Positions 3,671-53,899 of a stretch of DNA of 60,642 nt are shown here, piece by piece. A program made the position numbers and the translations under genes. Position 1 is the stretch's first letter. Each line of letters opens with the position of its first letter. The notes under the pieces are model-generated. The model was not told where the DNA came from. It saw only the letters and a list, made by a program, of their open reading frames with translations, and ran no database searches. The stretch lies in IMG/VR virus record IMGVR_UViG_2721755676_000007. One strand, 5' to 3'. The DNA is from a virus. Lineage: Duplodnaviria; Heunggongvirae; Uroviricota; Caudoviricetes.

Positions 3671-4270
3671 TCAGAATTTATAACCGACACCCACGATGAA
3701 ACCGTCAGTGCGCCAGTCACCACTGCCGGAGCCTTCATAAGCAATATCAATGGCCACGGATTCGGTCGGGTTAAACTGCACGCCAGCCCCCCACGCCAGA
3801 GACGTGTTGCTGTGGCGACCGTCATCACTTCCGGTCAGCACATCGTGCTTTTTCCCCTTGTTGTCAGTTACGCGAAGATAATCCCCGGAGAAAGTCGACA
3901 CACGGCTGTAAGCTACACCCGCCATCGCATACGCGCTGAACCATTCATTCACGCGCACAGACGGCCCCGCCATTACGCTGAACCAGCGGTTACGAACGGA
4001 ATCTTCATGCCAGCGGGTATCGCTGTAACGGGTCAGCTGGCGATTCTTGTCTCCTGCATAGCTGAATGACGTCACCAGCCCCAGTGTGTCCGTAAACTCA
4101 TAACGGTATTTCACGTTAATCCCGTTCAGATCATCACTGCCGGGGACGTTCGTCGAGGCATGAAGATACCCTGCGCTCAGTGTGGCCTGCTGCTCAGACG
4201 CCCATGCAGGCGCACCGGATACGGCCAGACAGATGGCTGCGGACAAAATGGCTGCACAAACTTTACGCAT
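3671..4270 (-). CDS. lom: Outer membrane protein Lom (Ail/Lom family)
   Basis: 199-aa ORF with signal peptide and beta-barrel ending in aromatic F; position between J and stf as in lambda. Confidence 0.9.
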   Translation of the reverse strand: MRKVCAAILSAAICLAVSGAPAWASEQQATLSAGYLHASTNVPGSDDLNGINVKYRYEFTDTLGLVTSFSYAGDKNRQLTRYSDTRWHEDSVRNRWFSVMAGPSVRVNEWFSAYAMAGVAYSRVSTFSGDYLRVTDNKGKKHDVLTGSDDGRHSNTSLAWGAGVQFNPTESVAIDIAYEGSGSGDWRTDGFIVGVGYKF

Positions 4271-19680: not shown

Positions 19681-19754
19681 TATGAAAAGACAGGAAAAAA
19701 TAAAATTTAAAAACAGTACATTACGAATGCTCAGACCTATCGTTTAAAGGAGTC

Positions 19755-19777
19755 GCAATACACACTGCAATACACGA
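19755..19777. repeat. Two direct copies of GCAATACAC(A/G) near the left end of the insert (candidate integrase arm sites)
   Basis: tcGCAATACACAcTGCAATACACGa; three copies of TGCAATACACA occur at the other end (30381-30434). Confidence 0.5.
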
Positions 19778-20107
19778 TTATTTATAAGATGAGCGGCATC
19801 CGTCATAAAGCTGGTGGATGCTTTTTCTATGCATATATGCACAGTTTTAGTGGGCGTTAATGTCGATATAGGGATCCCCATATCGAGATTGGATACCTGG
19901 CTTTTTTCCGGTTAACCTTTAATCAGGCTGGTGGGCTTTACCTGTTTTGTATGAGTGGTCATCATGACCATGTCATAACAAAAACCCCATATTCGTGGTT
20001 TTTCTGTGTCGGGCTATTCTGTCGTTGCTGTGCTGATTTGGCTGGTGGGCTGAATCATCATTACGGCGATGCAGCTATGTAGACGTTCCGGCCTCCTCAA
20101 ATTGAGG

Positions 20108-20245
20108 ATTGTGGAAGAATCAATGGGTTAGTCTTACTTTCCCGACATCCCCCAATGGGGGTTTTCGAAACAATCAATAGCTTAGGCTTACTTCCCCGAT
20201 TTCCTGCATTGCAGGTTTTCGAAATAATCAATGGGTTAGGCCATC
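20108..20245. repeat. 54-bp tandem repeat, about 2.5 copies, each unit containing a short hairpin palindrome
   Basis: AATCAATGGGTTAG / AATCAATAGCTTAG / AATCAATGGGTTAG at 20118, 20172, 20226; palindromes CCCCCAATGGGGG (20149-20161) and CCTGCATTGCAGG (20203-20215). Confidence 0.7.
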
Positions 20246-20489
20246 GTGCAATTTTGCACTTTGCCAGCCAGCGCAATGTCGCGTTATCAGTCCTCAGATG
20301 TGAGGGATGTAGCCAGCTTTTCCCCCAGTGGGGGATATCCAGCACCGACGGCTTAACTGTGCGTGCCAGCACAAGGTAGCCTTGAACTACTTACTGCATC
20401 CCATCTTACAGGCCGTGCCTTCCTGCTTAACTTTTTGCAATGCAACAAGTCAGCCAGCGCAATTTTGCGTTATCGGGAATATCAGCAAG

Positions 20490-20771
20490 TTACCGCCGCA
20501 ATCGTTCCGGCTTCTTCCACTGGTAAGTATTTTTCGCGCTCTCCCTCCGTTGTTGAGAACGGCGACGATATGCCAGCAACTCAAGGACTCTTGTTCGTAT
20601 GTTGCGCATATCCACGCCGTTAAGCTCAATACCGTCACGGCGCATCACCTCAGCCACTACACGCACATAATTATCTGCGGTCACGCTGTCCGGCTGCGTG
20701 GCCTGTTCGTCATGCTGCTTGCTGATTCCACAAGCACGGCGGATTAATCGCAGTATTTCGGATTCAGTCAT
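20490..20771 (-). CDS. Hypothetical protein (93 aa), satellite-encoded
   Basis: ORF downstream of the Nu1-like gene in the same orientation; no recognisable motif. Confidence 0.45.
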   Translation of the reverse strand: MTESEILRLIRRACGISKQHDEQATQPDSVTADNYVRVVAEVMRRDGIELNGVDMRNIRTRVLELLAYRRRSQQRRESAKNTYQWKKPERLRR

Positions 20772-20782
20772 AGCGTACTACG

Positions 20783-21337
20783 TTACTTATCTTTATTCGG
20801 CTGCAACTTATCCGGTACGTTTCCGGCAGTTTCCATCAGATAATCGGACAGCATCAGCGGTATGTTTTCGTCAAGTTTTGCGCATGCGTTACAGGCTCTG
20901 ATAACTTCTTTTTTCAGTCCATCCAGCATAGACGGCTTCATGTCGGGAAACTTCCTTGTCATGGCAAGCGGCAGGCTGTCCATGATTGAAGAAATCTGAC
21001 TCGCCAATTTTGAAAGCACGTATATACAAAACGCTGTATCAATAACGTCGCCGCGTTCGCGCTCGTTTTTAAGCTCCTGCGCCTCTGCCTGTGCTGTCAG
21101 CAATCTGATCCTGACTCGTAGAAGTTCATCATCATCAATCTCGCCTTTGTCGTCTGTAATCTGGTTAATTGCATTGCTAACCCGATTGTCTATTACGCTG
21201 GCAACATCATAAAACGCCTCGCGGCCTTTACGTTCAACGGGAGTCACTCCCCACTTGTCGAACGCTGTCGCACTTACACGGCAGCTTTGCGCCATGTTTT
21301 TTTTGTTCATCAGGTGCGATTTCATCAATATCCCCAC
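20783..21337 (-). CDS. Terminase small subunit homologue (Nu1-like), satellite-encoded
   Basis: C-terminal half aligns with lambda Nu1 (DTAFCIYVLSKLASQISSIMDSLPL vs ETAFCTFVLSRIAGEIASILDGIPL); sits about 120 bp downstream of the satellite cos; start may be the internal MNKKNM at 21310. Confidence 0.8.
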   Translation of the reverse strand: MGILMKSHLMNKKNMAQSCRVSATAFDKWGVTPVERKGREAFYDVASVIDNRVSNAINQITDDKGEIDDDELLRVRIRLLTAQAEAQELKNERERGDVIDTAFCIYVLSKLASQISSIMDSLPLAMTRKFPDMKPSMLDGLKKEVIRACNACAKLDENIPLMLSDYLMETAGNVPDKLQPNKDK

Positions 21338-21436
21338 TTAAGTAATGTTTCAGGTTGGTGTATTGGCTTTATCTTTTCCTTTTTATTCATAGAGATAGAG
21401 CGAACAACAAAACCACCACCAGCACCCGAAAAAGGC

Positions 21437-21502
21437 TCATAAATAGCGAAAACCCGCGAGGTCGCCGCCCCGTAGCCTACCGGATCACCGGAAAGGACCC
21501 GC
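21437..21502. other. Satellite cos site (cosN 12-mer at 21459-21470)
   Basis: 66-bp block with 4 mismatches to the prophage cos block at 34202-34267; contains the reverse complement of GGGCGGCGACCT; flanking cosB-side sequence differs. Confidence 0.8.
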
Positions 21503-21526
21503 CAGCCAGAGCGGGCCCTAATTTCA

Positions 21527-21910
21527 TCAACCAATCAGCTTATAGCGACCATCCCGTGCATTGCGGCGTACACGCTCAATCTTGAGGCATAGCGCCGCAT
21601 CTGGCTTTTTTGGGACAGGTACGCGGCAATATTCAGAAGCGCGAGGAATATTATTTATCCAGTCGATCACTTCACTTAAATACCAGGCCTTACGCCCTTC
21701 CGTAACCTGCACACGCTCCGGGAACTCTCCACTAGCCTCAAGGTTTAGCAGTGTACGACGACTCAGGGTTGTAATTTCCATCACCTGATTCATATCAACA
21801 AGGCGCTCGCTTAAACACATTTTGTCAGCGATAGCTTTTAATTCCTCTACAGCTGGATTCGGGTACATCATTTCGGCAATTGGCTTAAGGTCATTGTAAT
21901 CATTCTGCAT
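21527..21910 (-). CDS. AlpA-family HTH regulator (127 aa)
   Basis: C-terminal region ITTLSRRTLLNLEASGEFPERVQVTEGRKAWYLSEVIDWI resembles AlpA/excisionase-type HTH. Confidence 0.55.
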   Translation of the reverse strand: MQNDYNDLKPIAEMMYPNPAVEELKAIADKMCLSERLVDMNQVMEITTLSRRTLLNLEASGEFPERVQVTEGRKAWYLSEVIDWINNIPRASEYCRVPVPKKPDAALCLKIERVRRNARDGRYKLIG

Positions 21911-21921
21911 TGTATCCCCCT

Positions 21922-22263
21922 TTACACACGAGCCAGCGGCTGAACAGAAATACCTGAGCCAACAAACGCTGCAACCTTTACTGACAGTTCTTTAACAGAC
22001 TCAGGCCAGTTCAGAGCATCAACATTTAAGACACCTGTCTTATAGACCTGAGCCTGTGTTTTTTTCGCGGTGTCGATTTGTACAGCGGAAACATAAACCG
22101 CTTTACCTACGCTCGAACCATCCCATACCACCAGTGCACCTGTTGCATCTTCCTGCATCAGTGGCGTAAATGCAGGAATTACCCCTTTATTAGCTGAAAA
22201 TATCCCCAGCGTAGTCACCAGTGCTTCAGTGCCAGCCATGAGTTCAGTGTAATGAGTAGCCAT
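21922..22263 (-). CDS. Head decoration protein D paralogue, satellite-encoded
   Basis: 113 aa; aligns with lambda D over VWDGSSVGKAVYVSAV...YKTGVLNVDALNWPE vs [17 protein letters not shown]...[15 protein letters not shown]. Confidence 0.7.
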   Translation of the reverse strand: MATHYTELMAGTEALVTTLGIFSANKGVIPAFTPLMQEDATGALVVWDGSSVGKAVYVSAVQIDTAKKTQAQVYKTGVLNVDALNWPESVKELSVKVAAFVGSGISVQPLARV

Positions 22264-22272
22264 TGCTCCCCC

Positions 22273-23319
22273 TTAGCCAATGCGAACGGTAACAAAACGA
22301 TTGATGCGGGCCGGTATTGGCTGTGGTGCTGAATGTGTCTGCACATATTCAATAGCCGGATCACCAGGCACAATATAGTTTTTCGGTGCAAGTTCGGCTT
22401 TAGTCAGCCCCATTCGGATTAGCTCCGGATCCTGAATACCGCCATAGGCGACAATCCCCTGAAGAGCCGTATTGCCAAGCACCATCAAATCAGGATCAAG
22501 GAAATGTTTTTCTGTTCCGTCCTCGTCGGTATAACGCCCGCTGTAAACAACAATCGCAACATCGCCCATATACCCTTTAAAACTCACCGAATCACCAAGG
22601 TCTTTAAGGGCCGTTTCCAGTTCGGAATTAGAACCACGACGGGTATCCAAAGCCTCTTTTATCGCTCTGAATGAACGGTATTTCTTCCATACATTACCAC
22701 CCATAATGATGATATTAGTGACGCCCTCACTAAATTCTGCGTAGCTCTCAATATCATCATTTGGATCAAAAGTTTCTTTATCCTTACCTGACCACTCAGT
22801 ACCGCCAGACTGAGTGATGATATTTTGTGGTTTTATATTCCAGTCCAGCTCATAACGTTCAATACCATCGCCCTCAATGATATTTTTCCCCGTTGTGATT
22901 GCCTGAACAGCAAGCCATTCAATACGTGCACGAATAGCTTTAGCCTGATTTACAATCGCCTGTTTAACTTTAATATTACGCGCCCCAAAAGCATTGTATT
23001 GCTCAGGTGACACACCAGCAGGGCGCACAGCTAACTTATTTGGATCAATGCTGCTTTTCGGCTTCATATAACCTGGACGAATTGTTTTTGATTCGTATCC
23101 CTCATCTCGTGAAACTTTACTGCCCACCATAGGAGAGCAAAACGCCGCGATCGGGATATTTGGATCGTCGATCGTATCAAGAATAATGTCTCTCGATTCA
23201 AACATTACCGAGCGAGTGAAAAACAAACTGGTAAACAACGCATTTAATTTTTTTTGCACATCTTCAGCATTAGCCACCTGCACAAGCTGTGTAGGCGAAT
23301 ATAAATCAACCATACTCAT
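22273..23319 (-). CDS. Major capsid protein E paralogue, satellite-encoded
   Basis: 349 aa from MSMVDLYSPTQL; conserved blocks ITQSGGTEWSGKDKETFDPNDDIESYA and LDTRRGSNSELETALKDLGDSVSFKGYMGDVAIVVYSGRY match lambda E. Confidence 0.85.
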   Translation of the reverse strand: MSMVDLYSPTQLVQVANAEDVQKKLNALFTSLFFTRSVMFESRDIILDTIDDPNIPIAAFCSPMVGSKVSRDEGYESKTIRPGYMKPKSSIDPNKLAVRPAGVSPEQYNAFGARNIKVKQAIVNQAKAIRARIEWLAVQAITTGKNIIEGDGIERYELDWNIKPQNIITQSGGTEWSGKDKETFDPNDDIESYAEFSEGVTNIIIMGGNVWKKYRSFRAIKEALDTRRGSNSELETALKDLGDSVSFKGYMGDVAIVVYSGRYTDEDGTEKHFLDPDLMVLGNTALQGIVAYGGIQDPELIRMGLTKAELAPKNYIVPGDPAIEYVQTHSAPQPIPARINRFVTVRIG

Positions 23320-23530
23320 CCTCTTTACATTCATTACAAATAATTGTGAATATATTCTATTACCGATGTCTGCTATGCGAACACATGCAACCAAGTGCAA
23401 TGTTGTATAAAATATGCCGTAACAACTTCAGTGCTGATAATTCGTGTTAATGTATTTACTTCCTTTGGTCGGGATTTATGTAGCATGCCGGAAAATCTAT
23501 TTTTTTCCGGCATCTTTTTGTTTGCAGAAT

Positions 23531-23953
23531 TTAAAACGGTATATTATCGCCGTACGGATCATCATTCCCCGACTGTTGTTTTGCCCTGTTCAGTGCGTCA
23601 GTGGCCTGCCCCTGCTGGCCTTTTTTGCCGCCCGGTCGCGCCGTTCGCGCACTGATTACGCTGTCTGCGATAAGCTGCCAGCCCCGCCGCGTTTCGCCGT
23701 TCTGGCCTGTCCACTGGCTTACCTGCATGTTACCCGCCACGCTCACCAGTTCGCCTTTGTGGTGTTTTGCCAGTGCGTCGGCCTGTCTGCCAAACGCCAG
23801 GACGGATAACCACATCGTCGCCGTTCCGTCATCTGCCTGGCTGCACGGCAGGGGAACCGCCATACTCGCCATCGCCATTTGTGTCCCTTTGCTGGTGGTC
23901 TTTAACTGCGGGTCAGCCACCAGCCGCCCGTAAGCCGCTATCTGTGCTGTCAT
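23531..23953 (-). CDS. ssb: Single-stranded DNA-binding protein (SSB-like)
   Basis: 140 aa with OB-fold-like N-terminus, Gly/Gln-rich linker and acidic C-terminal tail ending DNIPF (SSB tip DDDIPF). Confidence 0.7.
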   Translation of the reverse strand: MTAQIAAYGRLVADPQLKTTSKGTQMAMASMAVPLPCSQADDGTATMWLSVLAFGRQADALAKHHKGELVSVAGNMQVSQWTGQNGETRRGWQLIADSVISARTARPGGKKGQQGQATDALNRAKQQSGNDDPYGDNIPF

Positions 23954-24264
23954 GCTGTCTGCTCTCCGGTTTTAACATTGATGGTTGTCACCTGTTCCGC
24001 TTCGGCAATCTCCCGTTCTGTCAGCGTGGCAAAGTTTGCCGCTGCTGTGGTCATAAATGCGCTTATCAGGTCGGGATGTTCCTTCGCGTATCCTGCCCGT
24101 GTGTGGTGGTCTATCGCTTTGATTGCCACCTTTAAGGAAAGCTCTGTCATGTCTAACGCTTTATATTTTGCCTGTGTTCTGTCTCTGCGAATTTTGGTCA
24201 TTTGTCGCCCCTGATTCATGTTTTCGGCTGGCATGTTTGTTAAGTGATTTTTATGTATGCGCAT
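23950..24264 (-). CDS. Hypothetical protein (104 aa)
   Basis: ORF coupled to ssb (ATGA overlap), immediately downstream of the iteron region. Confidence 0.45.
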   Translation of the reverse strand: MRIHKNHLTNMPAENMNQGRQMTKIRRDRTQAKYKALDMTELSLKVAIKAIDHHTRAGYAKEHPDLISAFMTTAAANFATLTEREIAEAEQVTTINVKTGEQTA

Positions 24265-24315
24265 TTATTTTCACCCCCCCTCGTTTAAAAAGTTTTTAGT
24301 TGTGCCTCCCCCCCC

Positions 24316-24537
24316 TCTACCCATCTACCCGAATGCTCATCATGTCAGTAATGGCGCCGCTTTCAGCGGGTAGATAGCTTTTTTGACTCCTCTACCTGCC
24401 GTCTACCCTGCTACCTGAAACTGATAAAATCAGGTAGAAGAGGTAGAGAGCTTTTATTAGCCTTCTACCTAGCCCTATACCCACTTATCATGTTGAATAA
24501 TATGCGTTTATTTCGTTCAGGTAGATGGGGTAGATGG
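24316..24537. repeat. Iteron array (GGTAGA / TCTACC repeats), candidate satellite replication origin
   Basis: At least 12 copies of the hexamer in both orientations immediately downstream of the primase gene. Confidence 0.7.
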
Positions 24538-24550
24538 CTTTTACAAAAAA

Positions 24551-26305
24551 TTATAAAAACGCGTCGCAATCGTCTGTTGTAATTGCGTTGGTCTGCGTTA
24601 CTCCCTTAACTTTTCGCGTAATATATTCATGCCCGTAAACTTTCGCCGCTGGCTTCATGGCCTTGCTGAACTCAGCCACGTTTAGCGGTTTGCTCCTGCC
24701 CGCGTATGCCATAAACGCCAGATAGACGCGGTAAAGGCTGTTCCTGGTCGTGTACTTCACTGAATCACCACCGCCACCCATCATCAGGCCGCGCGCTTCC
24801 TCCAGAAAATTCAGGAACTGGCAAAACTCAATAACCGGATCCGTCTGTTGCTTTATTGCCAGTGCTTCATCACCGTCACGCTGTTCCAGTAGTAAAGCCC
24901 GTGCCTTCTCAGGGTCGGTAAAGTTCGCCAGCAATCGGCGGATAATAACGGGGATTTCAGCCGCAATCTTTTCCGGTAGCTCCCTGTCTTTTTCGGCCTC
25001 ACTGACGATATTGTCGAAACGGAAAATCACGCGACGACGTGCCACACCTCCGGCCCGTTCGGTGAATATCATCGGGTTGTTGTTGGTCGCCAGCACCACC
25101 GCCCTGATTACCGCCGTGAAACGCTTTTCATATTTCGGGTTAATTTCCACGGGGTCGCCGCCTGTGATTTTCTTGATGCCCGTTCCTTCGCCTGTATATT
25201 TCGGCTGGTCAGCCAGGACGATAAGACGACTCCCGACAACCTGCGCACGTCCACCAGCATCATCAAGCGATGTCATTTCAGCGCTTACCGTGTTCTGTTT
25301 CCCTGCCAGAAGGCTGGCTATGTGTGTGAATGTACTTTTACCGCTCCCGCCGTCTCCGGTGGCCTCAATAAACATCTGCCAGTCGTACCGGTTCGCCATA
25401 ATCATGTACAGCGCGGCACATATACGCATCATCTTGCGCGGGTCTTTTCCGGCTGCGTGCTCAAGCCATTTATGAAAGTTTGGCGCGTTATCGCGGATGT
25501 TCTCCCCTGGTGCTGGTGGCGTGTACTCAATGCCGTTGTGCGTGGTGATCCAGTTCTCCGGCGTGTGCGGGGAAAATTCCCCCGTTTTCAGGTCAAGCGC
25601 ACCATTGGCGAACGGCAGCAAATCGCCAGACGGCTCGCCCATTGGTTCGGCAATAACTTTTAACGCTTCCACGGCGTTATTGATTACGCGCTTGCTGAAA
25701 GTGGCCCTGTGCTCTGAATAGATCGCCACCATTTCGCGGCTAAGTTCCATTGTGCTGACCGGACACCATACCCCGCCGCGCCATACGTGAACGATTTCAC
25801 TTTCAGGATGTACGCAAACGCCATCAAAGCGATCGGCAAGCAACTGCGCGCGCTCACTGTCCGCCATCTGCGAAAGTTGCGCCTTTTGCTTTACCGGAAG
25901 CTCAATGACCAGACCATCAGAAAGATTCTGGCGTTCACGGGCCAGATATTCGCGCCAGTTCTGCACCTCCTGGCCGTGCATACCCTCAGGATAAAAATTT
26001 GCATCCTGTACGCCTGCTGCCGCCAGCTTCTGACCAATCGCCTTTATCATTACAGGCGCAAGATATCCGGCCCTGTATATGCGTGCTGATTTTCGGCCTT
26101 CCGGCACAATTTGCAGATTATCCAGTTCGGATAGCTGCTGCTCCCCAAGCCACACAGGAGGCTCATTATCTCCGGCCATACGCGCATCATGTTCCTGCCA
26201 TTGTTTCGCGTGTGCCCAGGCATCACTACCCGCAAAAATAATTACTTCTGTTCCTTTGTGTTTTATGCCGCGTGACTGCTGTTTTACGTTCGGTGCCAGT
26301 TTCAT
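24551..26305 (-). CDS. P4 alpha-like primase/helicase (D5 family, Walker A GDGGSGKST)
   Basis: 584-aa ORF with P-loop NTPase core and phage/plasmid primase C-terminal-type architecture. Confidence 0.8.
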   Translation of the reverse strand: MKLAPNVKQQSRGIKHKGTEVIIFAGSDAWAHAKQWQEHDARMAGDNEPPVWLGEQQLSELDNLQIVPEGRKSARIYRAGYLAPVMIKAIGQKLAAAGVQDANFYPEGMHGQEVQNWREYLARERQNLSDGLVIELPVKQKAQLSQMADSERAQLLADRFDGVCVHPESEIVHVWRGGVWCPVSTMELSREMVAIYSEHRATFSKRVINNAVEALKVIAEPMGEPSGDLLPFANGALDLKTGEFSPHTPENWITTHNGIEYTPPAPGENIRDNAPNFHKWLEHAAGKDPRKMMRICAALYMIMANRYDWQMFIEATGDGGSGKSTFTHIASLLAGKQNTVSAEMTSLDDAGGRAQVVGSRLIVLADQPKYTGEGTGIKKITGGDPVEINPKYEKRFTAVIRAVVLATNNNPMIFTERAGGVARRRVIFRFDNIVSEAEKDRELPEKIAAEIPVIIRRLLANFTDPEKARALLLEQRDGDEALAIKQQTDPVIEFCQFLNFLEEARGLMMGGGGDSVKYTTRNSLYRVYLAFMAYAGRSKPLNVAEFSKAMKPAAKVYGHEYITRKVKGVTQTNAITTDDCDAFL

Positions 26306-26601
26306 TTTTTACCTCTGAATCCGTTAATCATGGTTTTCATTTTCTGGATATTTCCCCACGCTTTTTCCCTGCTGATGGGCTTACTGCGGGGTGCGGCATA
26401 TACCAGGGAAAAATCACGCCGGAACTGATAAACAGGCATCACGCAGTCATAGCTATACCCCTCACGGCGGTAAGTGATGCGCCGTTCTGCCACGCCTTTA
26501 ATCGTTACCGTGCCGCCGTATTTATCGCGGTAAATATCGCCGTTCATAAATTCAGGTCGAGCGGGGCCGCTGGCAATAAAGCCAGAATTTTTCATTTCCA
26601 T
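26302..26601 (-). CDS. Hypothetical protein (99 aa)
   Basis: ORF coupled to the primase start (overlap at 26302-26305). Confidence 0.45.
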   Translation of the reverse strand: MEMKNSGFIASGPARPEFMNGDIYRDKYGGTVTIKGVAERRITYRREGYSYDCVMPVYQFRRDFSLVYAAPRSKPISREKAWGNIQKMKTMINGFRGKK

Positions 26602-26618
26602 ATTATTTATTCCTCGAC

Positions 26619-26840
26619 TTAACTCGACTTATTTGATAGCAGGGCACTATTTATTGCGTCATTGAGTTTTTCTGCTGATTCATCAATAAGTGACAACAGG
26701 CCATAAGCAATATTTGCATCTTCATTGTCATTTATGCAATCAAGCCACATATTTAATATTGCTTTTGCTGAATTATTTAAAGTTAATGAACTTTCTGCAC
26801 ATGCTAACAATTTAAAAAAGACTTCCCGTTCTGTATTCAT
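26619..26840 (-). CDS. Hypothetical protein (73 aa)
   Basis: Small ORF in the same operon orientation. Confidence 0.4.
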   Translation of the reverse strand: MNTEREVFFKLLACAESSLTLNNSAKAILNMWLDCINDNEDANIAYGLLSLIDESAEKLNDAINSALLSNKSS

Positions 26841-27032
26841 TTAATCCCCCACCAGCTTACTTTCTTCCTCAATCAAAAAACTAGCGACACTTCCCGAAAG
26901 ACGCGCCAGTAGGCTCGCCAGTGCGGATATATCAGCATCTGTAATTTTGTTCGGGTATACCTCAAGAAGGCGGCAAATAATTTCTGTCTGGTGCGCACGT
27001 TCAGCGGCTTCGTGTAATGTAATTTCCTGCAT
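26841..27032 (-). CDS. Hypothetical protein (63 aa)
   Basis: Stop/start overlap with the next ORF at 27032. Confidence 0.4.
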   Translation of the reverse strand: MQEITLHEAAERAHQTEIICRLLEVYPNKITDADISALASLLARLSGSVASFLIEEESKLVGD

Positions 27033-27217
27033 TAATGCACCTCTTTTAATTCATACACTGCTGAAATAATGACTTGTGATAAGCCATATTCTGATGATTC
27101 GCTTCTCACCGCAGCAATAGCCGTCTGAACATTAACAGCCTTCACATTCTGAGCGATACCAATTGTGTGGCCTATTGGGTTAACAGCTCGGGCAAATACA
27201 CGGAAGGTTTTAAGCAT
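27032..27217 (-). CDS. Hypothetical protein (61 aa)
   Basis: ATG preceded by GGGAG-type Shine-Dalgarno; first gene of the leftward operon. Confidence 0.45.
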   Translation of the reverse strand: MLKTFRVFARAVNPIGHTIGIAQNVKAVNVQTAIAAVRSESSEYGLSQVIISAVYELKEVH

Positions 27218-27597
27218 GACTCACTCCCTGGCGGATTTTTGCAGCGAATACAGCAACACAACCGGACGGGCAACGGCTACGCGCTTCGCGTTCCGTCCAG
27301 GCGGTTACGTGGATGATTTGAGATTCTCCGGCACTCAGTGCCAGAAAACGCCACACAAAGGCCGTTTGTGTGTGTACAAGGTGTGGTATATGATTTACAG
27401 CAACCATAACGGCTCCTAGTTTACGTTGTTGGTTAGACGCCCCGTATGTGTTCCCAGCACTGCGGGGCGTTGCTCTTTGTATTTCAACAATCCTTTCGGT
27501 GTGTTTCATGTTATGAGCGCATGAAACACACGTCAAGGCTTTTTGTATTTCTTTTTTTGTGTATACTGAAACACACCGATGATTAGGAGTTTCAGAA

Positions 27598-27903
27598 ATG
27601 GCAACGGCTAACAAAAACGCAAAATCACAACTGACAACTGTCAGAGTCCCACTAGATGTTATGCAAGGGATGGAATCCGTTAAGCTGGACGGTGAAAGCA
27701 ATGCCGGATTTATCGTAACCGCCATGCGCGGAGAAATAGCCCGCCGCCAAGCAGAAGGCAGCGGAGAAAATCCCCTTGTGTCGTCACTGGATGCCCTGGC
27801 TAAGGTCGAACAAATCGGCATCAAAGCAGCCGAGGAGATCGGGCAACTCGTCACCGTCGCGCGTGAAGAACTCCAGCGACGCAAGGTCAAAGAGCATGAA
27901 TAG
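27598..27903 (+). CDS. Small DNA-binding-like protein (possible ribbon-helix-helix), the only plus-strand gene in the satellite
   Basis: 101 aa; AGGAG 8 nt upstream of ATG; divergent from the small-ORF/primase operon across 27218-27597. Confidence 0.5.
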   Translation: MATANKNAKSQLTTVRVPLDVMQGMESVKLDGESNAGFIVTAMRGEIARRQAEGSGENPLVSSLDALAKVEQIGIKAAEEIGQLVTVAREELQRRKVKEHE

Positions 27904-28236
27904 CCAATATCAGCGCCATAGTTTGAGGAACGCAGGCGCATTGCTTTACAGGACAGCACCATGAGCGACACAGAATCAACCAAAACACCATCACCAACTC
28001 GTAAGAGACGACGCAAAAATATAGCGCATGAACATGAATCAGAAAGATTCGCACCTTGTTCGTTTGCTCTTGAGAAATTCCTTAAAGAGCACAGGAAAAA
28101 GCTCTCGTTGCAAACCTTGGAACGAACCAAATCTGGCTGATCACATTGCCCACCAGCCGCAAATGTGGCATTGTTGGTGATGCTTTTGTTTTCCCTTGTT
28201 CCCACTGGCGACCCTTTTGCGGTCGCCTTTGTTTTG

Positions 28237-28560
28237 TCACTGAATGCGGTTACCAAAGTAAAACTCAGGCTGATATTCACGTATCAGCGTTTTTTCTTCT
28301 TCCTCCAGCTCACGCTTTTTGCGCTTACATGCCTGTAGCTCCCTCCCCTTCTCGCTGGCACTTATTTGATATTGCTCTTTACGGCGGGAAAAATCCTGTA
28401 ATGCACCCCACGGGATACCATAAGTCCCCGTTTTTCTGATACCTGGTATCACATTTCTGAATACCCAGTTACTGAAACGATGAGCAAATGTGCCAGGCGT
28501 CGTTGCTTTGCGGCTGCGGGCTATTAGTTTGTAGAAACCTGACTCAGAGATAATTCTCAT
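28237..28560 (-). CDS. Bro-N domain protein, C-terminal part (split ORF)
   Basis: SESGFYKLIARSRKATTPGTFAHRFSNWVFRNVIPGIRKTGTYG is the second half of a Bro-N domain. Confidence 0.6.
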   Translation of the reverse strand: MRIISESGFYKLIARSRKATTPGTFAHRFSNWVFRNVIPGIRKTGTYGIPWGALQDFSRRKEQYQISASEKGRELQACKRKKRELEEEEKTLIREYQPEFYFGNRIQ

Positions 28561-28814
28561 ATTCTGATTTCCTCCTGGGTGTAAGTTAAATTTACTCCCT
28601 TTTCATCATCATCAAGCATCTGCAACGCCGTACGCGAATTGGTTAGTTCCAGCGCAGCACAAACATCTTTTGCAACAAACCACGGATCGCCGTTCAGATA
28701 CACCACACGAACGTTCACACTATCAAAGCGCAGAACGACGAGATCACGAATATCGCAGAATTTTTTCACTGGACGAGCGTACCCCTTGCCCGTCACGGCA
28801 ATATTTTTATTCAT
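28557..28814 (-). CDS. Bro-N domain protein, N-terminal part (split ORF)
   Basis: DPWFVAKDVCAALELTNSRTALQMLDDDEKG is the first half of a Bro-N domain; ends GGAGGAAATCAGAATATGA overlapping the next start. Confidence 0.6.
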   Translation of the reverse strand: MNKNIAVTGKGYARPVKKFCDIRDLVVLRFDSVNVRVVYLNGDPWFVAKDVCAALELTNSRTALQMLDDDEKGVNLTYTQEEIRI

Positions 28815-28870
28815 CGCGTTTTTACCTTATAGACAAAAAACCCCTCGTGATGAGGGGCATTATTTACTGG

Positions 28871-29128
28871 TTATTGCTGTTTTGTTTTTCCAGGTTTCCA
28901 TCCAGGATGCCACTCACCACGGATCCATGCCTGAACCTCTGAAAGTCGATACCCTGCAGCACGTTCACCGATCTTGATACGTCGCGGGAATTTACCTGCC
29001 TGCTCCATTTTCCAGCGTGTTGAGTTTGCCAGCGTGGTAAGTGCTATGCACTCTTTTTCACGAATGAACCGATCAATGTCCTTCATTGTGCGCAAATCGT
29101 TTTCATCAACAAGAGAATAAATTGCCAT
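28871..29128 (-). CDS. alpA: AlpA-family transcriptional regulator / excisionase-like
   Basis: 85 aa directly downstream of the integrase, typical P4/CP4-57-type int-alpA pair. Confidence 0.7.
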   Translation of the reverse strand: MAIYSLVDENDLRTMKDIDRFIREKECIALTTLANSTRWKMEQAGKFPRRIKIGERAAGYRLSEVQAWIRGEWHPGWKPGKTKQQ

Positions 29129-29129
29129 A

Positions 29130-30371
29130 TCACACCACCTCTTTATTAAGCTCGATAACGTTGTTGTTAAATCCTGCTATCGTATTAAGGTAATTAACCC
29201 ACATATTAAGCACCTCAAGTTTTTTCTTTATATGCCTGCTTTTATTGTAAACACCAGCAACCCCTTTCACTTTATGACCTAAAAGAAGTTCGACAATATA
29301 AGGATCCGCCCCCATATCATTAAGCGTAGTGGAAAATGTGCGCCTGAAATCATGTATGCACCACAAGCCATTAGTATCATGACCAAGACGCCTGCATATT
29401 CTGTTTGCAGCCCCTGTTATTGTCGCCCTTTGCAAAGCACAACCGACAACATAACCGCGATTTTTTGTTTCTGCGTAAAGATTAACGATCCATTGTTTTA
29501 TTCCGTCAGGAACAGGCCTTACTATAGCCTCCTTGTTTTTGCTGTGCTCTTTTGGGACTGTCCATACCCAGTTTTTTAAATCCCATTCGTCCCAGGTGGA
29601 TAGCCTCGCCTCCTGCTGTCGGCAACCAAACACCAGGCAGATAACCATTATTCTTCGGTTATATATTGATGACAGAGTTAGCAAATTATTACCGTAAGCA
29701 TAAGACCATACATCAGCGGTTTCATTGATATTAAGAACGCGATCCCTTATACCGGATGAGCGCCCGACATAACTTACGTTAATATCTCCAAAGGGATCGC
29801 ACGCGATGTATTGCCTGACGCGACAAAAACGCAACGCCTGTTTGATATCAAGAAAAATTGCACCAGACATAACAGGCGCATTTTTTTTGATCCTGTCAAA
29901 GACGGTAAGCCATGTGTGTAATTTGCACTGTTCTATAGCCATATCACCGATATAGGGGAAGATATGCTTTTCAAATCGTTTTATTAAATATTCATGCTCT
30001 TTTCTGGCTGTTGTGGCGTGATTGTCGTACCAGTAAAACAGCGCATCCCTTACGGTCACTGGTTGCATAGTTTTTTCGGCAGCAAGTTTTATTTGCCTGC
30101 GGGGGTCCAGATTTTCAGCCAGCCATTCACGGCACTGATCACGCATGCGCCTGGCCGTTGCAAGAGACATGTCAGGATAGCGACCAAGTGTAAGCCATAC
30201 CGGAGGGGATTCCCTGCCACCAAGACGATAGTAAAAAACAAAGCTGATCCCCCCAACCATGCTTACACGCACAGACAACCCGCGCCCATCCGCTATTGTT
30301 TTTTGTTTGTCCTGCCGTTTTCCGACAAGACTCTTTAACAGTTTGTCACTGAGTTTGTTTTCAATAGCCAT
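29130..30371 (-). CDS. int: Tyrosine integrase, P4-type
   Basis: 413 aa; N-terminal GRGLSVRV...GGISFVFYYRLGGR arm-binding-type domain; C-terminal HDFRRT...LLGH...Y catalytic signature. Confidence 0.88.
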   Translation of the reverse strand: MAIENKLSDKLLKSLVGKRQDKQKTIADGRGLSVRVSMVGGISFVFYYRLGGRESPPVWLTLGRYPDMSLATARRMRDQCREWLAENLDPRRQIKLAAEKTMQPVTVRDALFYWYDNHATTARKEHEYLIKRFEKHIFPYIGDMAIEQCKLHTWLTVFDRIKKNAPVMSGAIFLDIKQALRFCRVRQYIACDPFGDINVSYVGRSSGIRDRVLNINETADVWSYAYGNNLLTLSSIYNRRIMVICLVFGCRQQEARLSTWDEWDLKNWVWTVPKEHSKNKEAIVRPVPDGIKQWIVNLYAETKNRGYVVGCALQRATITGAANRICRRLGHDTNGLWCIHDFRRTFSTTLNDMGADPYIVELLLGHKVKGVAGVYNKSRHIKKKLEVLNMWVNYLNTIAGFNNNVIELNKEVV

Positions 30372-30380
30372 TAAAAGCCC

Positions 30381-30434
30381 TCAAGAGATTTGCAATACAC
30401 ACCCATCCCGATCGCCAATTTGCAATACACATTG
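30381..30434. repeat. Three direct copies of TGCAATACACA upstream of the satellite integrase (candidate arm-type sites)
   Basis: Copies at 30381, 30411 and 30424; same motif twice at the opposite end of the insert. Confidence 0.55.
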
Positions 30435-30571
30435 CAATACACAAAACCGCGAAAAACTGGAAGGGTGATGAACGGTCATCAAAAGCATGGAAAACGACAT
30501 TCCAGACGCAGCAAGGGTTTCAGTGGAGTTGGCGAACGATGCGGGCAACTACGGTGAGATGATAGACATAA

Positions 30572-33500
<2,929 letters not shown>

Positions 33501-37628: not shown

Positions 37629-38055
37629 AAGCTGTGTGACGAAGTAACCACTCTTAACAGCATAACCAATTTTTTACGTACGTAAACCACTAAATGATAT
37701 TTGCGAGAATGCTACCGAGTATTGAAAACACCACTACAAATACATAAGCAAATCTCAACAAATAACCAACAAATAATTTCCAGTGTTATTTTTAGCCGGT
37801 TTAAATTGAACCTTCAAATTATAGAGCACTTATAAATAACAGCCATTAATATAAATTGGCTAATAGATTTATTTTTATTCAGCCAAGAGCCATGAATAGG
37901 ATTCGATAGAAAAAAGTTCAGATAAAAATAGAGATCTACTTCACAAATCAAACGAGAAACCAAAACTTACATCTTGAAATAATCACATTGATTAGATGAA
38001 TATTTATCGCGCAGTGACATCATTTTTTAATAATAGTTCAAAAAAAGGGCTCACG

Positions 38056-39153
38056 ATGAAAAAATTAACAGTGGCAATTTCTGCTGTAGCTGCATCAGTA
38101 CTGATGGCGATGTCTGCTCAGGCAGCTGAAATTTATAATAAAGACAGTAACAAGCTGGATCTGTACGGGAAAGTTAATGCTAAGCACTACTTCTCCTCTA
38201 ATGATGCAGATGATGGTGATACTACTTATGCCCGTCTTGGCTTCAAAGGTGAAACCCAAATCAACGATCAACTGACTGGTTTCGGTCAGTGGGAATATGA
38301 ATTCAAAGGCAACCGCGCTGAATCTCAAGGTTCCTCCAAAGATAAAACCCGTCTTGCCTTCGCTGGCCTGAAATTCGGTGACTACGGCTCCATCGATTAC
38401 GGCCGTAACTACGGTGTAGCATACGACATCGGTGCGTGGACTGACGTCCTGCCAGAATTCGGTGGTGACACTTGGACTCAAACCGACGTGTTCATGACTC
38501 AACGTGCAACTGGTGTTGCAACCTATCGTAACAACGACTTCTTTGGTCTGGTTGATGGTCTGAACTTTGCTGCTCAGTACCAAGGCAAAAACGATCGTAG
38601 CGATTTCGATAACTACACCGAAGGTAACGGTGATGGCTTCGGTTTCTCTGCTACCTATGAATACGAAGGATTCGGTATCGGTGCAACTTATGCGAAATCT
38701 GATCGTACCGACACTCAAGTTAATGCAGGGAAAGTTCTTCCTGAAGTATTTGCTTCCGGTAAAAATGCAGAAGTTTGGGCCGCAGGTCTGAAATATGACG
38801 CTAATAACATTTACCTGGCCACTACCTATTCTGAAACCCAGAATATGACTGTATTTGCTGATCACTTCGTTGCTAATAAAGCTCAAAACTTCGAAGCTGT
38901 TGCACAATATCAGTTCGATTTCGGTCTGCGTCCGTCCGTTGCTTACCTGCAATCTAAAGGTAAGGATCTTGGAGTATGGGGCGATCAGGACTTAGTCAAA
39001 TATGTTGATGTAGGTGCAACCTATTACTTCAACAAAAATATGTCTACTTTCGTTGATTACAAAATCAACCTGCTTGACAAAAATGACTTCACTAAAGCAC
39101 TCGGTGTAAGCACTGATGACATCGTTGCTGTAGGTCTGGTTTACCAGTTCTAA
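38056..39153 (+). CDS. nmpC: Outer membrane porin NmpC/Lc (OmpC/OmpF/PhoE family)
   Basis: Start at [23 protein letters not shown] signal peptide; porin signature and C-terminal ...VYQF; lies between Q and S on the opposite strand. Confidence 0.9.
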
Positions 39154-51808: not shown

Positions 51809-51912
51809 AACAACCTCCGTGGTTAACTTGAATTAAGATTAAAACCATGGTTGTTTTTAGTCAACAACCATTTTCGTTTGATGAAATAAAACCTTGGTTG
51901 TACATTTGGTCT
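51809..51912. promoter_or_regulatory. Divergent immunity promoter/operator region (OR-like)
   Basis: Palindromes AACCATGGTT (51843-51852) and AACCTTGGTT (51891-51900) plus CAACAACCAT half-sites between divergent cro and cI starts. Confidence 0.55.
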
Positions 51913-52602
51913 ATGAAAACAACACTCTCAGAAAGACTTAAAGAAGCCAGATTAGCGCGAGGCCTTACACAAAAGGCGCTTGGGGATATGGTCGGGGTTA
52001 GCCAGGCTGCCATTCAGAAAATCGAAACAGGGAAAGCTAACCAAACAACTAAAATCGTGGAGATCGCAAACGCTTTAGGTGTGCGCGCAGAATGGTTATC
52101 TTCTGGCGTTGGAAATATGTCAGACAGTACCGTGCAACCAATACAATCAGCTGTCAGCCATTCAAAATACTTCAAGATTGACGTTCTTGATATAGAAGTC
52201 AGTGCCGGACCGGGTGTCATCAACCGTGAGTTTGTGGAAGTTCTACGCTCGGTTGAGTACTCGTTTGACGATGCTCGTCACATGTTCGATGGCAGGAAGG
52301 CGGAAAATATCCGCATCATTAACGTGCGCGGTGACAGCATGTCAGGGACGATCGAACCAGGTGACCTGCTGTTCGTTGATATCACTGTTAAATCTTTCGA
52401 CGGTGATGGCATCTATGCGTTTCTGTACGACGACACTGCCCATGTAAAACGTCTTCAAATGATGAAGGATAAGCTGCTGGTTATCTCTGATAACAAGAGC
52501 TACTCGCCGTGGGACCCGATCGAGAAAGACGAGATGAACCGGGTGTTCATATTCGGTAAGGTCATTGGAAGCATGCCGCAGACGTACAGGAAGCATGGTT
52601 AA
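51913..52602 (+). CDS. cI: CI-like repressor (HTH_XRE plus S24 LexA-type autoprotease domain)
   Basis: 229 aa from MKTTLSERLKEARLARGLTQKALGDMVGVSQAAIQKIE; C-terminal GDSM Ser and conserved Lys. Confidence 0.85.
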   Translation: MKTTLSERLKEARLARGLTQKALGDMVGVSQAAIQKIETGKANQTTKIVEIANALGVRAEWLSSGVGNMSDSTVQPIQSAVSHSKYFKIDVLDIEVSAGPGVINREFVEVLRSVEYSFDDARHMFDGRKAENIRIINVRGDSMSGTIEPGDLLFVDITVKSFDGDGIYAFLYDDTAHVKRLQMMKDKLLVISDNKSYSPWDPIEKDEMNRVFIFGKVIGSMPQTYRKHG

Positions 52603-52831
52603 TTTATCTACGACTTAAGGGAGCGAAGGTTAAGGTTTATACCACTCGGATTAGATATTGCACTAAATTCTCTATAAGAACGCCAAATCTGTTTGCATAT
52701 TTCAGTAAATATTCTCGTTGTTAGCTGAGATTTGTTGCTACTGTCAGCAAAATGTCCCCCTATCTCGTAGCGGTTTTTATTTCGAATCATTATGTTAAGA
52801 TGTTTCTGATTATAATGAATGGAAACATAAA

Positions 52832-53212
52832 ATGAGAAAAATCCTAATCGCTGCCATGATGGCATCTCTATTGGCTGGGTGTGCTTCTTCAGGCAACCAG
52901 CAACTCAAAAATGAAACTGAAATTAGTGTCCAGTCTAAACTTCAGGAAGGTAAAACAACCAAGAATGAGGTTAAATCTTACTTTGGTTCTCCTGATGCTG
53001 TTTCATATACTGACAGTGGAAACGAGATCTGGAAGTACGCCTTTGCAAAAGTAAAAGTTAATGGCACCACTTTTATTCCATTCTATGGATTATTCCATAA
53101 TGGAACGAACGGTACGAAAAAAGAACTTACTATTCTTTTTAACGATGACACGATTAAGAAATACACAATGTCAGAAACCCAAATAAACTCGAAATCAGGT
53201 TGGGCTGACTGA
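52832..53212 (+). CDS. Lipoprotein (126 aa) downstream of cI, at the position of lambda rexAB
   Basis: Signal peptide with lipobox LLAGC; followed by an intrinsic terminator. Confidence 0.65.
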   Translation: MRKILIAAMMASLLAGCASSGNQQLKNETEISVQSKLQEGKTTKNEVKSYFGSPDAVSYTDSGNEIWKYAFAKVKVNGTTFIPFYGLFHNGTNGTKKELTILFNDDTIKKYTMSETQINSKSGWAD

Positions 53213-53220
53213 TAATCATA

Positions 53221-53247
53221 CCCGGCAACCGCGCCGGGTTTTCTTTT
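53221..53247 (+). terminator. Intrinsic terminator after the cI-lipoprotein unit
   Basis: CCCGGC-aaccgc-GCCGGG followed by TTTTCTTTT. Confidence 0.65.
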
Positions 53248-53372
53248 CCTCCCCCTCATAACTCATACCGTCCAAAAAACCACCACACCTCACTTCAGTT
53301 ATCGCTATGCGATGCAAGTCACAAAATAAATCCATCCTAAATACAACCAGTTATATTTAAAACAACCGACAA

Positions 53373-53415
53373 AACAACTTTTGTTGTTGACGATAAAACA
53401 ACTATAGTTTTAAAT
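53373..53415 (+). promoter_or_regulatory. Candidate pL-type promoter with overlapping operator palindrome
   Basis: AACAAC-tttt-GTTGTT palindrome (53373-53388); -35 TTGACG (53387-53392), 17-bp spacer, -10 TTAAAT (53410-53415). Confidence 0.4.
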
Positions 53416-53488
53416 AAATTCATCGCAACGACACAACGATACGGTAACCACCTGTTTCACCGTTGCGATGACCGCTTAGATCCGCAGT

Positions 53489-53899
53489 TTGAATTTCAGC
53501 AGGCTTCGGGGAGTGCGAGGGGTGAAACGGACGCGTGAACGTCGGTGTGACCAGCTGAAATCAACACAACACTTTATACCTCAGTCGCTTCAACGAGGCG
53601 GCTTAGTTATGACAACCGGCGGCCATCCACCGCCTGAATACGCGCAGAAGTCTCTATATGTTCAGCAGCCCAGCTTACGGGCAGGAGTTTTTATGGTTCA
53701 TCAACATTACGGAACGCAGACCGTTAATCGCGGCGCGGTCATGCCAGGAATGCTGGTCAAACACAAAGATGGTACCTGGACTGCATCAGCTAATTTACGC
53801 GGGCGGCTTTATCTGCATCGCGGCATCGAGCGCACTTATACCCGTGATTTGCTCGTAGAAGTTTTTCTCGACGGACGCGGTAACGGCCTGAATCACTAA
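53489..53899 (+). CDS. Hypothetical protein with N-terminal arginine-rich motif (possible N-type antiterminator); reading frame uncertain
   Basis: KRTRERR near the N-terminus resembles the N-family ARM; remainder has no N-like features. Confidence 0.3.
   Translation: MNFSRLRGVRGVKRTRERRCDQLKSTQHFIPQSLQRGGLVMTTGGHPPPEYAQKSLYVQQPSLRAGVFMVHQHYGTQTVNRGAVMPGMLVKHKDGTWTASANLRGRLYLHRGIERTYTRDLLVEVFLDGRGNGLNH

Follow-up and report, generated by a model that had tools for sequence, protein, structure and literature searches.

A conserved BamE-fold lipoprotein gene in the rexAB-equivalent slot of a lambda-like prophage and its possible role in envelope-level exclusion

The IMG/VR virus record IMGVR_UViG_2721755676_000007 (Duplodnaviria; Heunggongvirae; Uroviricota; Caudoviricetes), whose whole stretch of 60,642 nucleotides is called the window below, is a lambda-like prophage sequence in which a gene for a lipoprotein of 126 amino acids (aa) lies between the CI-like repressor gene and an intrinsic terminator, in the slot held in lambda by rexAB. 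The gene is real, far beyond a chance open reading frame (ORF), and under constraint: against its copies from Salmonella, Citrobacter, and Enterobacter the DNA is 74–75% and the protein 77–82% identical, synonymous divergence (dS) is saturated, and the ratio of nonsynonymous to synonymous divergence (dN/dS) is 0.03–0.07. The lipoprotein represents a family of BamE fold that is uncharacterised yet already catalogued, occupies two different slots in prophage genomes, and belongs with the lysogen-expressed envelope morons. Among its possible functions, exclusion of incoming DNA at the level of the envelope, via a conserved envelope partner, is ranked first, as a tentative choice, because of the two slots, the neighbouring genes, and the carriage of the family on three kinds of mobile element, i.e., phages, phage-plasmids, and conjugative plasmids.

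The gene, its borders, and its expression

The + strand comprises, in order, cI, a 229-bp gap, the lipoprotein ORF, the terminator, an operator/promoter region, kil, gam, bet, and exo, with cro, a cII-like gene, O, and P located divergently on the opposite strand. The corresponding layout of lambda is cI–rexA–rexB–terminator–pL, and since the order found here (cI, the lipoprotein gene, terminator, oL/pL, kil gam bet exo) matches it, the preliminary description of this DNA was correct in assigning the gene to the rexAB slot. It also gave the orientation properly, both genes being on the + strand, while the gene is not "immediately" downstream of cI, as 229 bp separate the cI stop from the ATG. 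The operator half-sites are apparently AACAAC/GTTGTT inverted repeats, at 51847–51871 (oR) and about 53366–53395 (oL); no N-like ORF is present in 53250–53520, from the terminator/oL region to kil. The nearest phage is PhiR26_1, in which the region is 98.4% identical to that of the window and the gene is annotated "putative lipoprotein"; its annotation was also the source of the cI start, the longest cI ORF being 51847–52602. The features of the locus are the following:

51913–52602, + strand: CI-like repressor gene (Pfam Peptidase_S24, E = 1.5e-18; HTH_3, E = 3e-13).
52603–52778, no strand: AT-rich spacer of 176 bp with no credible ORF, confined to the cassette as it occurs in E. coli.
52770–52782, + strand: GCGGTTTTTATTT, decayed relic of an upstream intrinsic terminator, recognised in the leader alignment; no stable stem in the window.
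52793–52801, + strand: TGTTAAGAT, putative extended −10 element (TGnTAnnnT), candidate promoter of the moron itself.
52796–52809, + strand: TAAGATGTTTCTGA, exact match to the RcsB box TN(G/A)GAN4TC(T/C)NA, overlapping the putative −10.
52821–52825, + strand: Shine–Dalgarno-like GGAAA, 6 nt 5′ of the ATG, its GGA kept in all aligned leaders.
52832–53212, + strand: lipoprotein gene, 126 aa plus stop (signal peptide residues 1–16, 52832–52879; Cys17 codon, 52880–52882).
53220–53249, + strand: intrinsic terminator ACCCGGC-AACCGC-GCCGGGT plus TTTCTTTTCC, right border of the variable slot.

The protein's N-terminus reads MRKILIAAMMASLLAG|CASSGN and has the positively charged n-region, the hydrophobic core, and the lipobox L-A-G-C of a signal peptidase II substrate (MRK-ILIAAMMASL-LAG|C), so that the 126-aa lipoprotein with the lipobox LLAGC announced earlier is indeed encoded by 52832–53212, with Cys17 as its lipobox cysteine. 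G16 and C17 are invariant across 33 homologues; residue +2 is Ala (Val in a few homologues) and residue +3 is Ser. In E. coli, according to the Lol-avoidance rule, an Asp at +2 keeps a lipoprotein from the outer membrane. No Asp is found at this position, and since it is occupied by Ala, sorting to the outer membrane by Lol is expected, where the lipoprotein would face the periplasm.

The borders of the cassette are defined by the sister phages with the same cI. Homology to PhiR34_1, which has no cassette, and to PhiR47_2 ends at 52601, at the cI stop, and restarts at 53221, at the start of the terminator stem; PhiR34_1 and Turner do not have the gene, and PhiR47_2 has GevT/GevA instead of it. 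The G+C content is 35–37% over 52600–53200 versus about 50% on either flank, and this AT-richness, together with its absence from sisters sharing the cI, makes the gene a classic moron. Extra DNA, a deviating base composition, and a terminator, all three named in the moron criteria of Juhala and Hendrix (as in PMC3594210), are present. The gene is probably a horizontally acquired moron comprising a weak extended −10 promoter, itself putative, a single gene, and a terminator.

The terminator stem covers 53220–53239 (seven pairs, six of them G–C) and the T-tract extends to 53249. Its folding energy of −14.1 kcal/mol (z = −2.9), matched by none of 200 shuffles, bears out the strong intrinsic terminator claimed to follow the gene. 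The further claim that it is the gene's "own" is not borne out for the window: the terminator is a part of the shared backbone there, as homology to the sisters restarts at 53221, and both PhiR34_1 and PhiR47_2 have the same terminator without the gene. Throughout the family, a hairpin with a T-run lies 3′ of the gene in 38 of the 50 immunity-slot copies and 19 of the 23 tail-slot copies among the viral loci described below.

The spacer 52603–52778 matches only PhiR26_1 among phage records (blastn, and tblastn of an 85-aa antisense ORF) and is not common to the Salmonella, Citrobacter, or Enterobacter copies. It has no Rfam match and no consensus promoter or terminator on the + strand, and the Rfam scan found no RNA family near the lipoprotein gene. 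The 85-aa antisense ORF (52608–52865) was rejected, its sole homologue being the identical PhiR26_1 region, as was a minus-strand promoter-like site at 52838–52809, located downstream of the start of that ORF.

Homology across genera starts only 40–53 bp 5′ of the ATG (52779–52792). The pattern TGnTA(A/G)GAT is found 30–35 nt 5′ of the ATG in 36 of the 50 immunity-slot copies and 18 of the 23 tail-slot copies, with no conservation of the −35 region; a promoter scan of the Citrobacter locus (L007 among the loci compared, which are numbered L) gives TTGACC-16-TAAGAT with an upstream TG. TATAAT at 52811–52816 was rejected as a −10 element, because it would remove the ribosome-binding site and because other copies read TGCAAT. 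At the site equivalent to the decayed relic, intact hairpins are found in Salmonella phage S107 (L003 2918–2935) and in prophages of Enterobacter (L011 5924–5940), ca. 55–60 bp 5′ of the ATG, between the upstream gene and that of the lipoprotein; many relatives have such a terminator 3′ of cI and 5′ of the lipoprotein gene. Owing to this intact terminator the gene is autonomous there and not simply the distal gene of a cI operon, while in the window, where the hairpin has decayed, read-through from PRM is also possible. Fourteen viral copies lie only 40–48 nt behind cI, lack both the terminator and TGnTAAGAT, and can only be transcribed together with cI. Any of these three independent architectures, i.e., autonomous transcription, read-through, and co-transcription with cI, makes expression in the lysogen plausible.

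The RcsB box consensus TN(G/A)GAN4TC(T/C)NA is taken from PMC7913699. Three matches occur in the window versus 2.5 expected, and two of the three flank the start of the lipoprotein gene (52796–52809 and 52833–52846), the second of them being confined to the E. coli clade. The pattern is retained in 26 of 49 unique leaders and at 73 of 103 loci; most autonomous copies in both prophage slots keep the first match, and two diverged leader types keep the specified positions while the N4 spacer varies. A classical activator site was rejected on geometry, the box ending 22 nt 5′ of the ATG; since it also overlaps the putative −10, any action would have to be that of a site for repression or a roadblock. 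The box may equally be kept for the sake of the promoter and nothing more.

Fold, family, and genomic setting

The mature protein is a BamE-fold domain of ca. 110 aa with a family-specific insertion at residues ~77–90, NGTTFIPFYGLFHNG. The two helices and three strands of the BamE fold are found in the AlphaFold2 (AF2) monomer model computed with an alignment, which superseded an uninformative single-sequence model with a predicted local distance difference test (pLDDT) score of 47. The match to Pfam BamE (SmpA/OmlA, PF04355) reaches 21.8 bits versus the gathering cut-off of 23.2 (E = 1.6e-4), and that to PHROG 3135, annotated "unknown", has E = 7e-48. A profile search of 1.8 billion representatives gave 2705 clusters at E ≤ 1e-3, and of 50 distant relatives sampled, 42 match Pfam BamE at E ≤ 0.01 (best 4.8e-9). 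Alignment of the family with E. coli BamE by hhalign (probability 85.8%, E = 5e-6) reveals a 14-residue insertion, the most conserved part of the family, absent from BamE, and in turn the N-terminal BamE segment DINQGNYL has no counterpart in the lipoprotein family. Taken together, the 23% identity to E. coli BamE, the extra insertion, the lost segment, and the prophage, phage, and plasmid setting make the lipoprotein a member of the SmpA/OmlA fold superfamily that is no orthologue of BamE. In 87 E. coli genomes the Prokaryotic Genome Annotation Pipeline (PGAP) calls the product "outer membrane protein assembly factor BamE", a misleading name that should not be read as denoting a second subunit of the β-barrel assembly machinery (BAM). 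A profile search against Protein Data Bank (PDB) sequences yielded nothing significant, the OsmE NCBIfam equivalog score was not reached, and the protein shows no resemblance to Bor, TraT, or Lom. A literature search found no paper tying a BamE-like or SmpA/OmlA lipoprotein to a prophage function.

Homologues at 71–99% identity are found throughout Enterobacterales; across the span from E. coli to Serratia the mature protein keeps an identity of 71% or more. The amino-acid changes fall mostly within the signal peptide, and FIPFYGLFHNGTNGTKKELT and the C-terminal GWAD are nearly invariant.

Members of the family occur in 87 of the 5426 complete genomes of E. coli, in 142 IMG/VR contigs, and on 138 plasmids. 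At all ten genome loci (two common variants) the gene lies after the repressor gene, co-oriented with it, in a prophage immunity region; these loci represent several immunity types, with repressors 23–69% identical or unrelated. Of 77 IMG/VR loci classified, 50 have the gene after cI and 23 in the tail module just 5′ of the tape measure gene, with major-tail or chaperone-like genes on the other side. The tail slot is also occupied in Klebsiella phage RAH1, in seven species-representative genomes, and in a contractile-tailed phage-plasmid of E. coli. The plasmid relatives show 45–48% identity, and 103 of the 138 plasmids are conjugative; in a Burkholderia glumae plasmid with a type F mating-pair formation system (MPF_F) the gene lies ca. 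4 kb from a traG-N gene. More distant relatives, at 35–54% identity, come from Nitrospirae, Betaproteobacteria, Zetaproteobacteria, Verrucomicrobia, and others, in ordinary chromosomal neighbourhoods where these were examined. By analogy with HK97 gp15 and YebO, the likely history is that of a bacterial envelope lipoprotein captured by mobile elements.

The cI slot of relatives is occupied by BstA in S107 and by GevT/GevA in PhiR47_2, and that of lambda by RexAB; for GevT/GevA no literature source was found. In S107 the lipoprotein gene is present as well, directly downstream of the BstA abortive-infection gene. The latter (L003 1989–2911) is split into ORFs of 255 and 62 aa, both belonging to PHROG 6287, followed by the terminator and then the lipoprotein gene; the split reflects either a frameshift or an inactivated copy.

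Two further arrangements were observed around the copies from other genera. Directly after most of the immunity-slot ones there is, on the opposite strand, a conserved ORF of 68–80 aa (PHROG 3975 or 3946) that is not present in the window (L006–L015, ca. 6410–6720, minus strand; L003 3423–3650; L024, L025, L028, and L032). In front of more distant copies, whose identity is ca. 45% or lower, there is a gene for a small membrane protein or another protein, DUF2335 in Klebsiella phage RAH1 and DUF4755 in Salmonella (L004 2932–3405; L017 and L018 3419–3923), with which the lipoprotein gene may form two-gene cassettes.

Possible functions

Envelope-level exclusion would begin with transcription in the lysogen from the candidate promoter of the gene and, in the window, by read-through from PRM. 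The product would be cleaved by signal peptidase II, lipidated at Cys17, and sorted by Lol to the outer membrane, so that the domain of ca. 110 aa would be tethered facing the periplasm. The nearly invariant, family-specific FIPFYGLFHNGTNGTKK hairpin (FIPFYGLFHNG) is the proposed binding element, which would bind a conserved envelope component; the partner may be an outer-membrane protein or machine, contacted on its periplasmic side. The most probable form of protection is that this binding would hinder DNA entry of superinfecting phages after their adsorption, by a logic analogous to that of HK97 gp15, Cor, Llp, and TraT, although with no homology to them and no coupling to the phage's own receptor-binding protein.

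Several observations weigh against such a role. The chromosomal relatives suggest a general envelope role, which a phage could use for the fitness of its host. Very strong purifying selection with low diversity is atypical of arms-race proteins, and since the same module goes with different receptor-binding ends of J, the lipoprotein would not block the receptor of its own phage. No PADLOC-DB 2.0 family matches it at E ≤ 1, and matches to Cor, TrbK, Lpp, and other lipoprotein families are confined to the signal peptide. The authors of PhiR26_1 annotated PD-lambda-1 as the defence gene of that phage and left the lipoprotein as a "putative lipoprotein". The same lineage carries envelope morons of the fitness type, namely a porin, Lom, and an Ail-like outer-membrane protein in the window, and Bor and an omptin in PhiR26_1. 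Finally, the promoter is a consensus match only.

The strongest of the other explanations, although itself rather unlikely, is an envelope fitness or virulence moron that affects outer-membrane robustness, stress tolerance, or resistance to host factors and leaves phages unaffected, as lambda Bor confers serum resistance. Its main support, like that of a BAM-directed protein discussed below, comes from purifying selection and from the chromosomal relatives: constraint across genera fits a conserved housekeeping partner, and the distant relatives are ordinary chromosomal genes. BamE/OsmE-type folds are, moreover, typical of envelope-homeostasis lipoproteins, and the absence of coupling to the receptor-binding protein and the company of the porin, Lom, the Ail-like protein, Bor, and the omptin point the same way. 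Against this, both slots occupied by the gene are best known for exclusion or defence genes, the presence of the family on conjugative plasmids and phage-plasmids suggests that it takes part in conflicts among mobile elements, and the protein resembles neither Bor, TraT, nor Lom.

Less probable, and doubtful on its own terms, is a BamE mimic that would dock on BamA POTRA5 and BamD, either replacing BamE or next to it, and thereby affect the conformation of BamA, the assembly of RcsF, or which outer-membrane proteins are displayed, with an expression maybe wired to Rcs. The protein is only 23% identical to BamE and its Pfam score of 21.8 stays below the cut-off of 23.2; DINQGNYL is without an equivalent, and the segment best conserved in the family is an insertion not found in BamE. 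The SmpA/OmlA fold is, in addition, common to many proteins unrelated to BAM (OsmE, BLIP, BtiO), and promoter conservation alone may account for the retention of the RcsB-like box, as this overlaps the putative −10. The mimic can also be combined with exclusion. A BamE mimic borne on mobile elements, docking from the periplasm on BAM or another conserved outer-membrane machine, would alter what the surface of the cell shows or lets in and would then exclude phages, conjugation, or toxins independently of the receptor, its synthesis being tied to the Rcs envelope-stress response via the RcsB-box-like element at its promoter. This combined proposal has a slim chance of being correct; if true, it would represent a new class of envelope-level exclusion factor found in prophages, phage-plasmids, and conjugative plasmids.

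A slighter chance still is given to a periplasmic decoy or inhibitor of an incoming phage tail lysin, a tape-measure domain, a colicin, or an effector of a type VI secretion system (T6SS). Precedents of this kind exist, as the β-lactamase inhibitor protein (BLIP) binds β-lactamases and BtiO sequesters the effector BteO. No cognate toxin gene is located near the lipoprotein gene, the fold matches to BLIP and BtiO are weaker than that to BamE, and immunity or decoy proteins usually diversify, while this family is highly conserved.

A Cor/Llp-type blocker of the phage's own receptor, which the lipoprotein would recall as a predicted outer-membrane lipoprotein of a temperate phage, is very improbable, since the same module is found with unrelated C-termini of J. 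Between the window and PhiR26_1, which alone among E. coli phage records has the lipoprotein gene, the cI–lipoprotein module is 98–99% identical and the J C-termini are unrelated; the C-terminal 132 residues of J of the window are at least 90% identical in 56 phage records, PhiR26_1 not among them. Both cor and llp are linked to the receptor-binding genes of their phages, unlike the lipoprotein gene, and neither is known to be located downstream of a repressor gene. There is no similarity to Cor or Llp in sequence or fold. A kinship with Cor/Llp or other exclusion families, put forward as checkable by the preliminary description, found no support in profile searches: the match to Cor (PHROG 1119, E = 0.034) covers only residues 1–29, i.e., the signal peptide, PADLOC gave nothing, and no fold match was obtained. 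Cor itself inactivates FhuA (PMC11436027; PMC3594210). The J C-terminus (4338–5321) is a clean tail-tip module swap: it has no relation to the J end of PhiR26_1, with which the remainder of the genome is 96–98% identical, and it is 97% identical to that of PhiR55_1 and ca. 95% to those of many Shiga toxin (Stx)-converting phages.

Prophage morons made in the lysogen are a main source of exclusion factors and of host fitness or virulence traits. The lipoprotein family is notable among them as common, unusually conserved, and located in the two slots of lambdoid phages that are best known for exclusion and defence. Should it act on a conserved envelope machine, it would represent a receptor-independent way of closing the outer membrane and a natural probe of BAM or Rcs biology; even as a mere fitness factor it should be listed among the lysogenic-conversion genes.

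The rest of the prophage and comparison with known systems

The window differs from PhiR26_1 in several other regions. An insertion of ca. 10.9 kb (19681–30566) splits the lambda-type portal gene, the N-terminal part of which lies at 30523–31401 on the minus strand; there is a 13-bp overlap of the homology on the two flanks, as would fit an att duplication. Genes found within the insertion are:

20786–21337: Nu1-like small terminase.
22276–23400: Phage_cap_E capsid protein.
24554–26305: D5_N/DUF5906 primase.
29133–30371: tyrosine integrase.

The insertion looks like a capsid-forming satellite of the phage-inducible chromosomal island (PICI) type integrated inside the prophage, which would thereby be rendered defective. 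An IS10 insertion occupies 42763–44033, with RNA-OUT (Rfam RF00240, 99.5 bits) at 42763–42832 on the minus strand and a transposase ORF of 402 aa at 42825–44033. Where PhiR26_1 has PD-lambda-1, the window has at 44142–47172 a large serine recombinase (44142–45665) and an IS3-family rve transposase (46270–47172); this position, adjoining ren and P, is a second variable slot with a different cargo in the window. Further envelope morons are located at 3671–4270 (Lom-like), 37996–39150 (general porin; Porin_1, E = 6e-157), and 48003–48749 (Ail/OmpX-like β-barrel).

Among known proteins, E. coli BamE differs from the lipoprotein in its setting, the latter being encoded by prophages and plasmids whose hosts already possess a bamE gene. 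The BLIP-like proteins and BtiO, a T6SS immunity protein of B. fragilis, stand further off, with 12–18% identity and with partner toxins for which no gene is found here. RexAB, BstA, and GevT/GevA share with the lipoprotein the position, the co-orientation with cI, expression in the lysogen (predicted here), and replacement of one by another between related phages. They are cytoplasmic or inner-membrane abortive-infection or toxin systems, in contrast to the single exported lipoprotein, which has no PADLOC match.

Cor of phi80, N15, and HK022 and Llp of T5 are phage-encoded outer-membrane lipoproteins that protect the cell at its envelope, as the lipoprotein putatively does. Their genes are linked to receptor-binding genes and they block FhuA, while the lipoprotein gene is uncoupled from J. 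Lambda Bor and TraT of the F plasmid, which are also outer-membrane lipoproteins of mobile elements, change the cell surface (serum resistance and surface exclusion, respectively); they have another fold and no homology to the lipoprotein, the relatives of which are also carried by MPF_F conjugative plasmids, within a few kb of traG.

The closest parallel is HK97 gene 15, the founding moron, located between the tail chaperone and tape measure genes, whose product excludes superinfecting phages at DNA entry and for which capture from the bacterial YebO family was proposed (PMC3594210). It differs in coding for a small inner-membrane protein of the YebO family with no homology to the lipoprotein, and the copy in the window lies in the cI slot. 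Both are units of promoter (putative here), gene, and terminator with a deviating G+C content, expressed, as predicted here, from the prophage and apparently captured from a bacterial envelope family, and 23 of the 77 viral copies of the lipoprotein gene occupy the very slot of gene 15.

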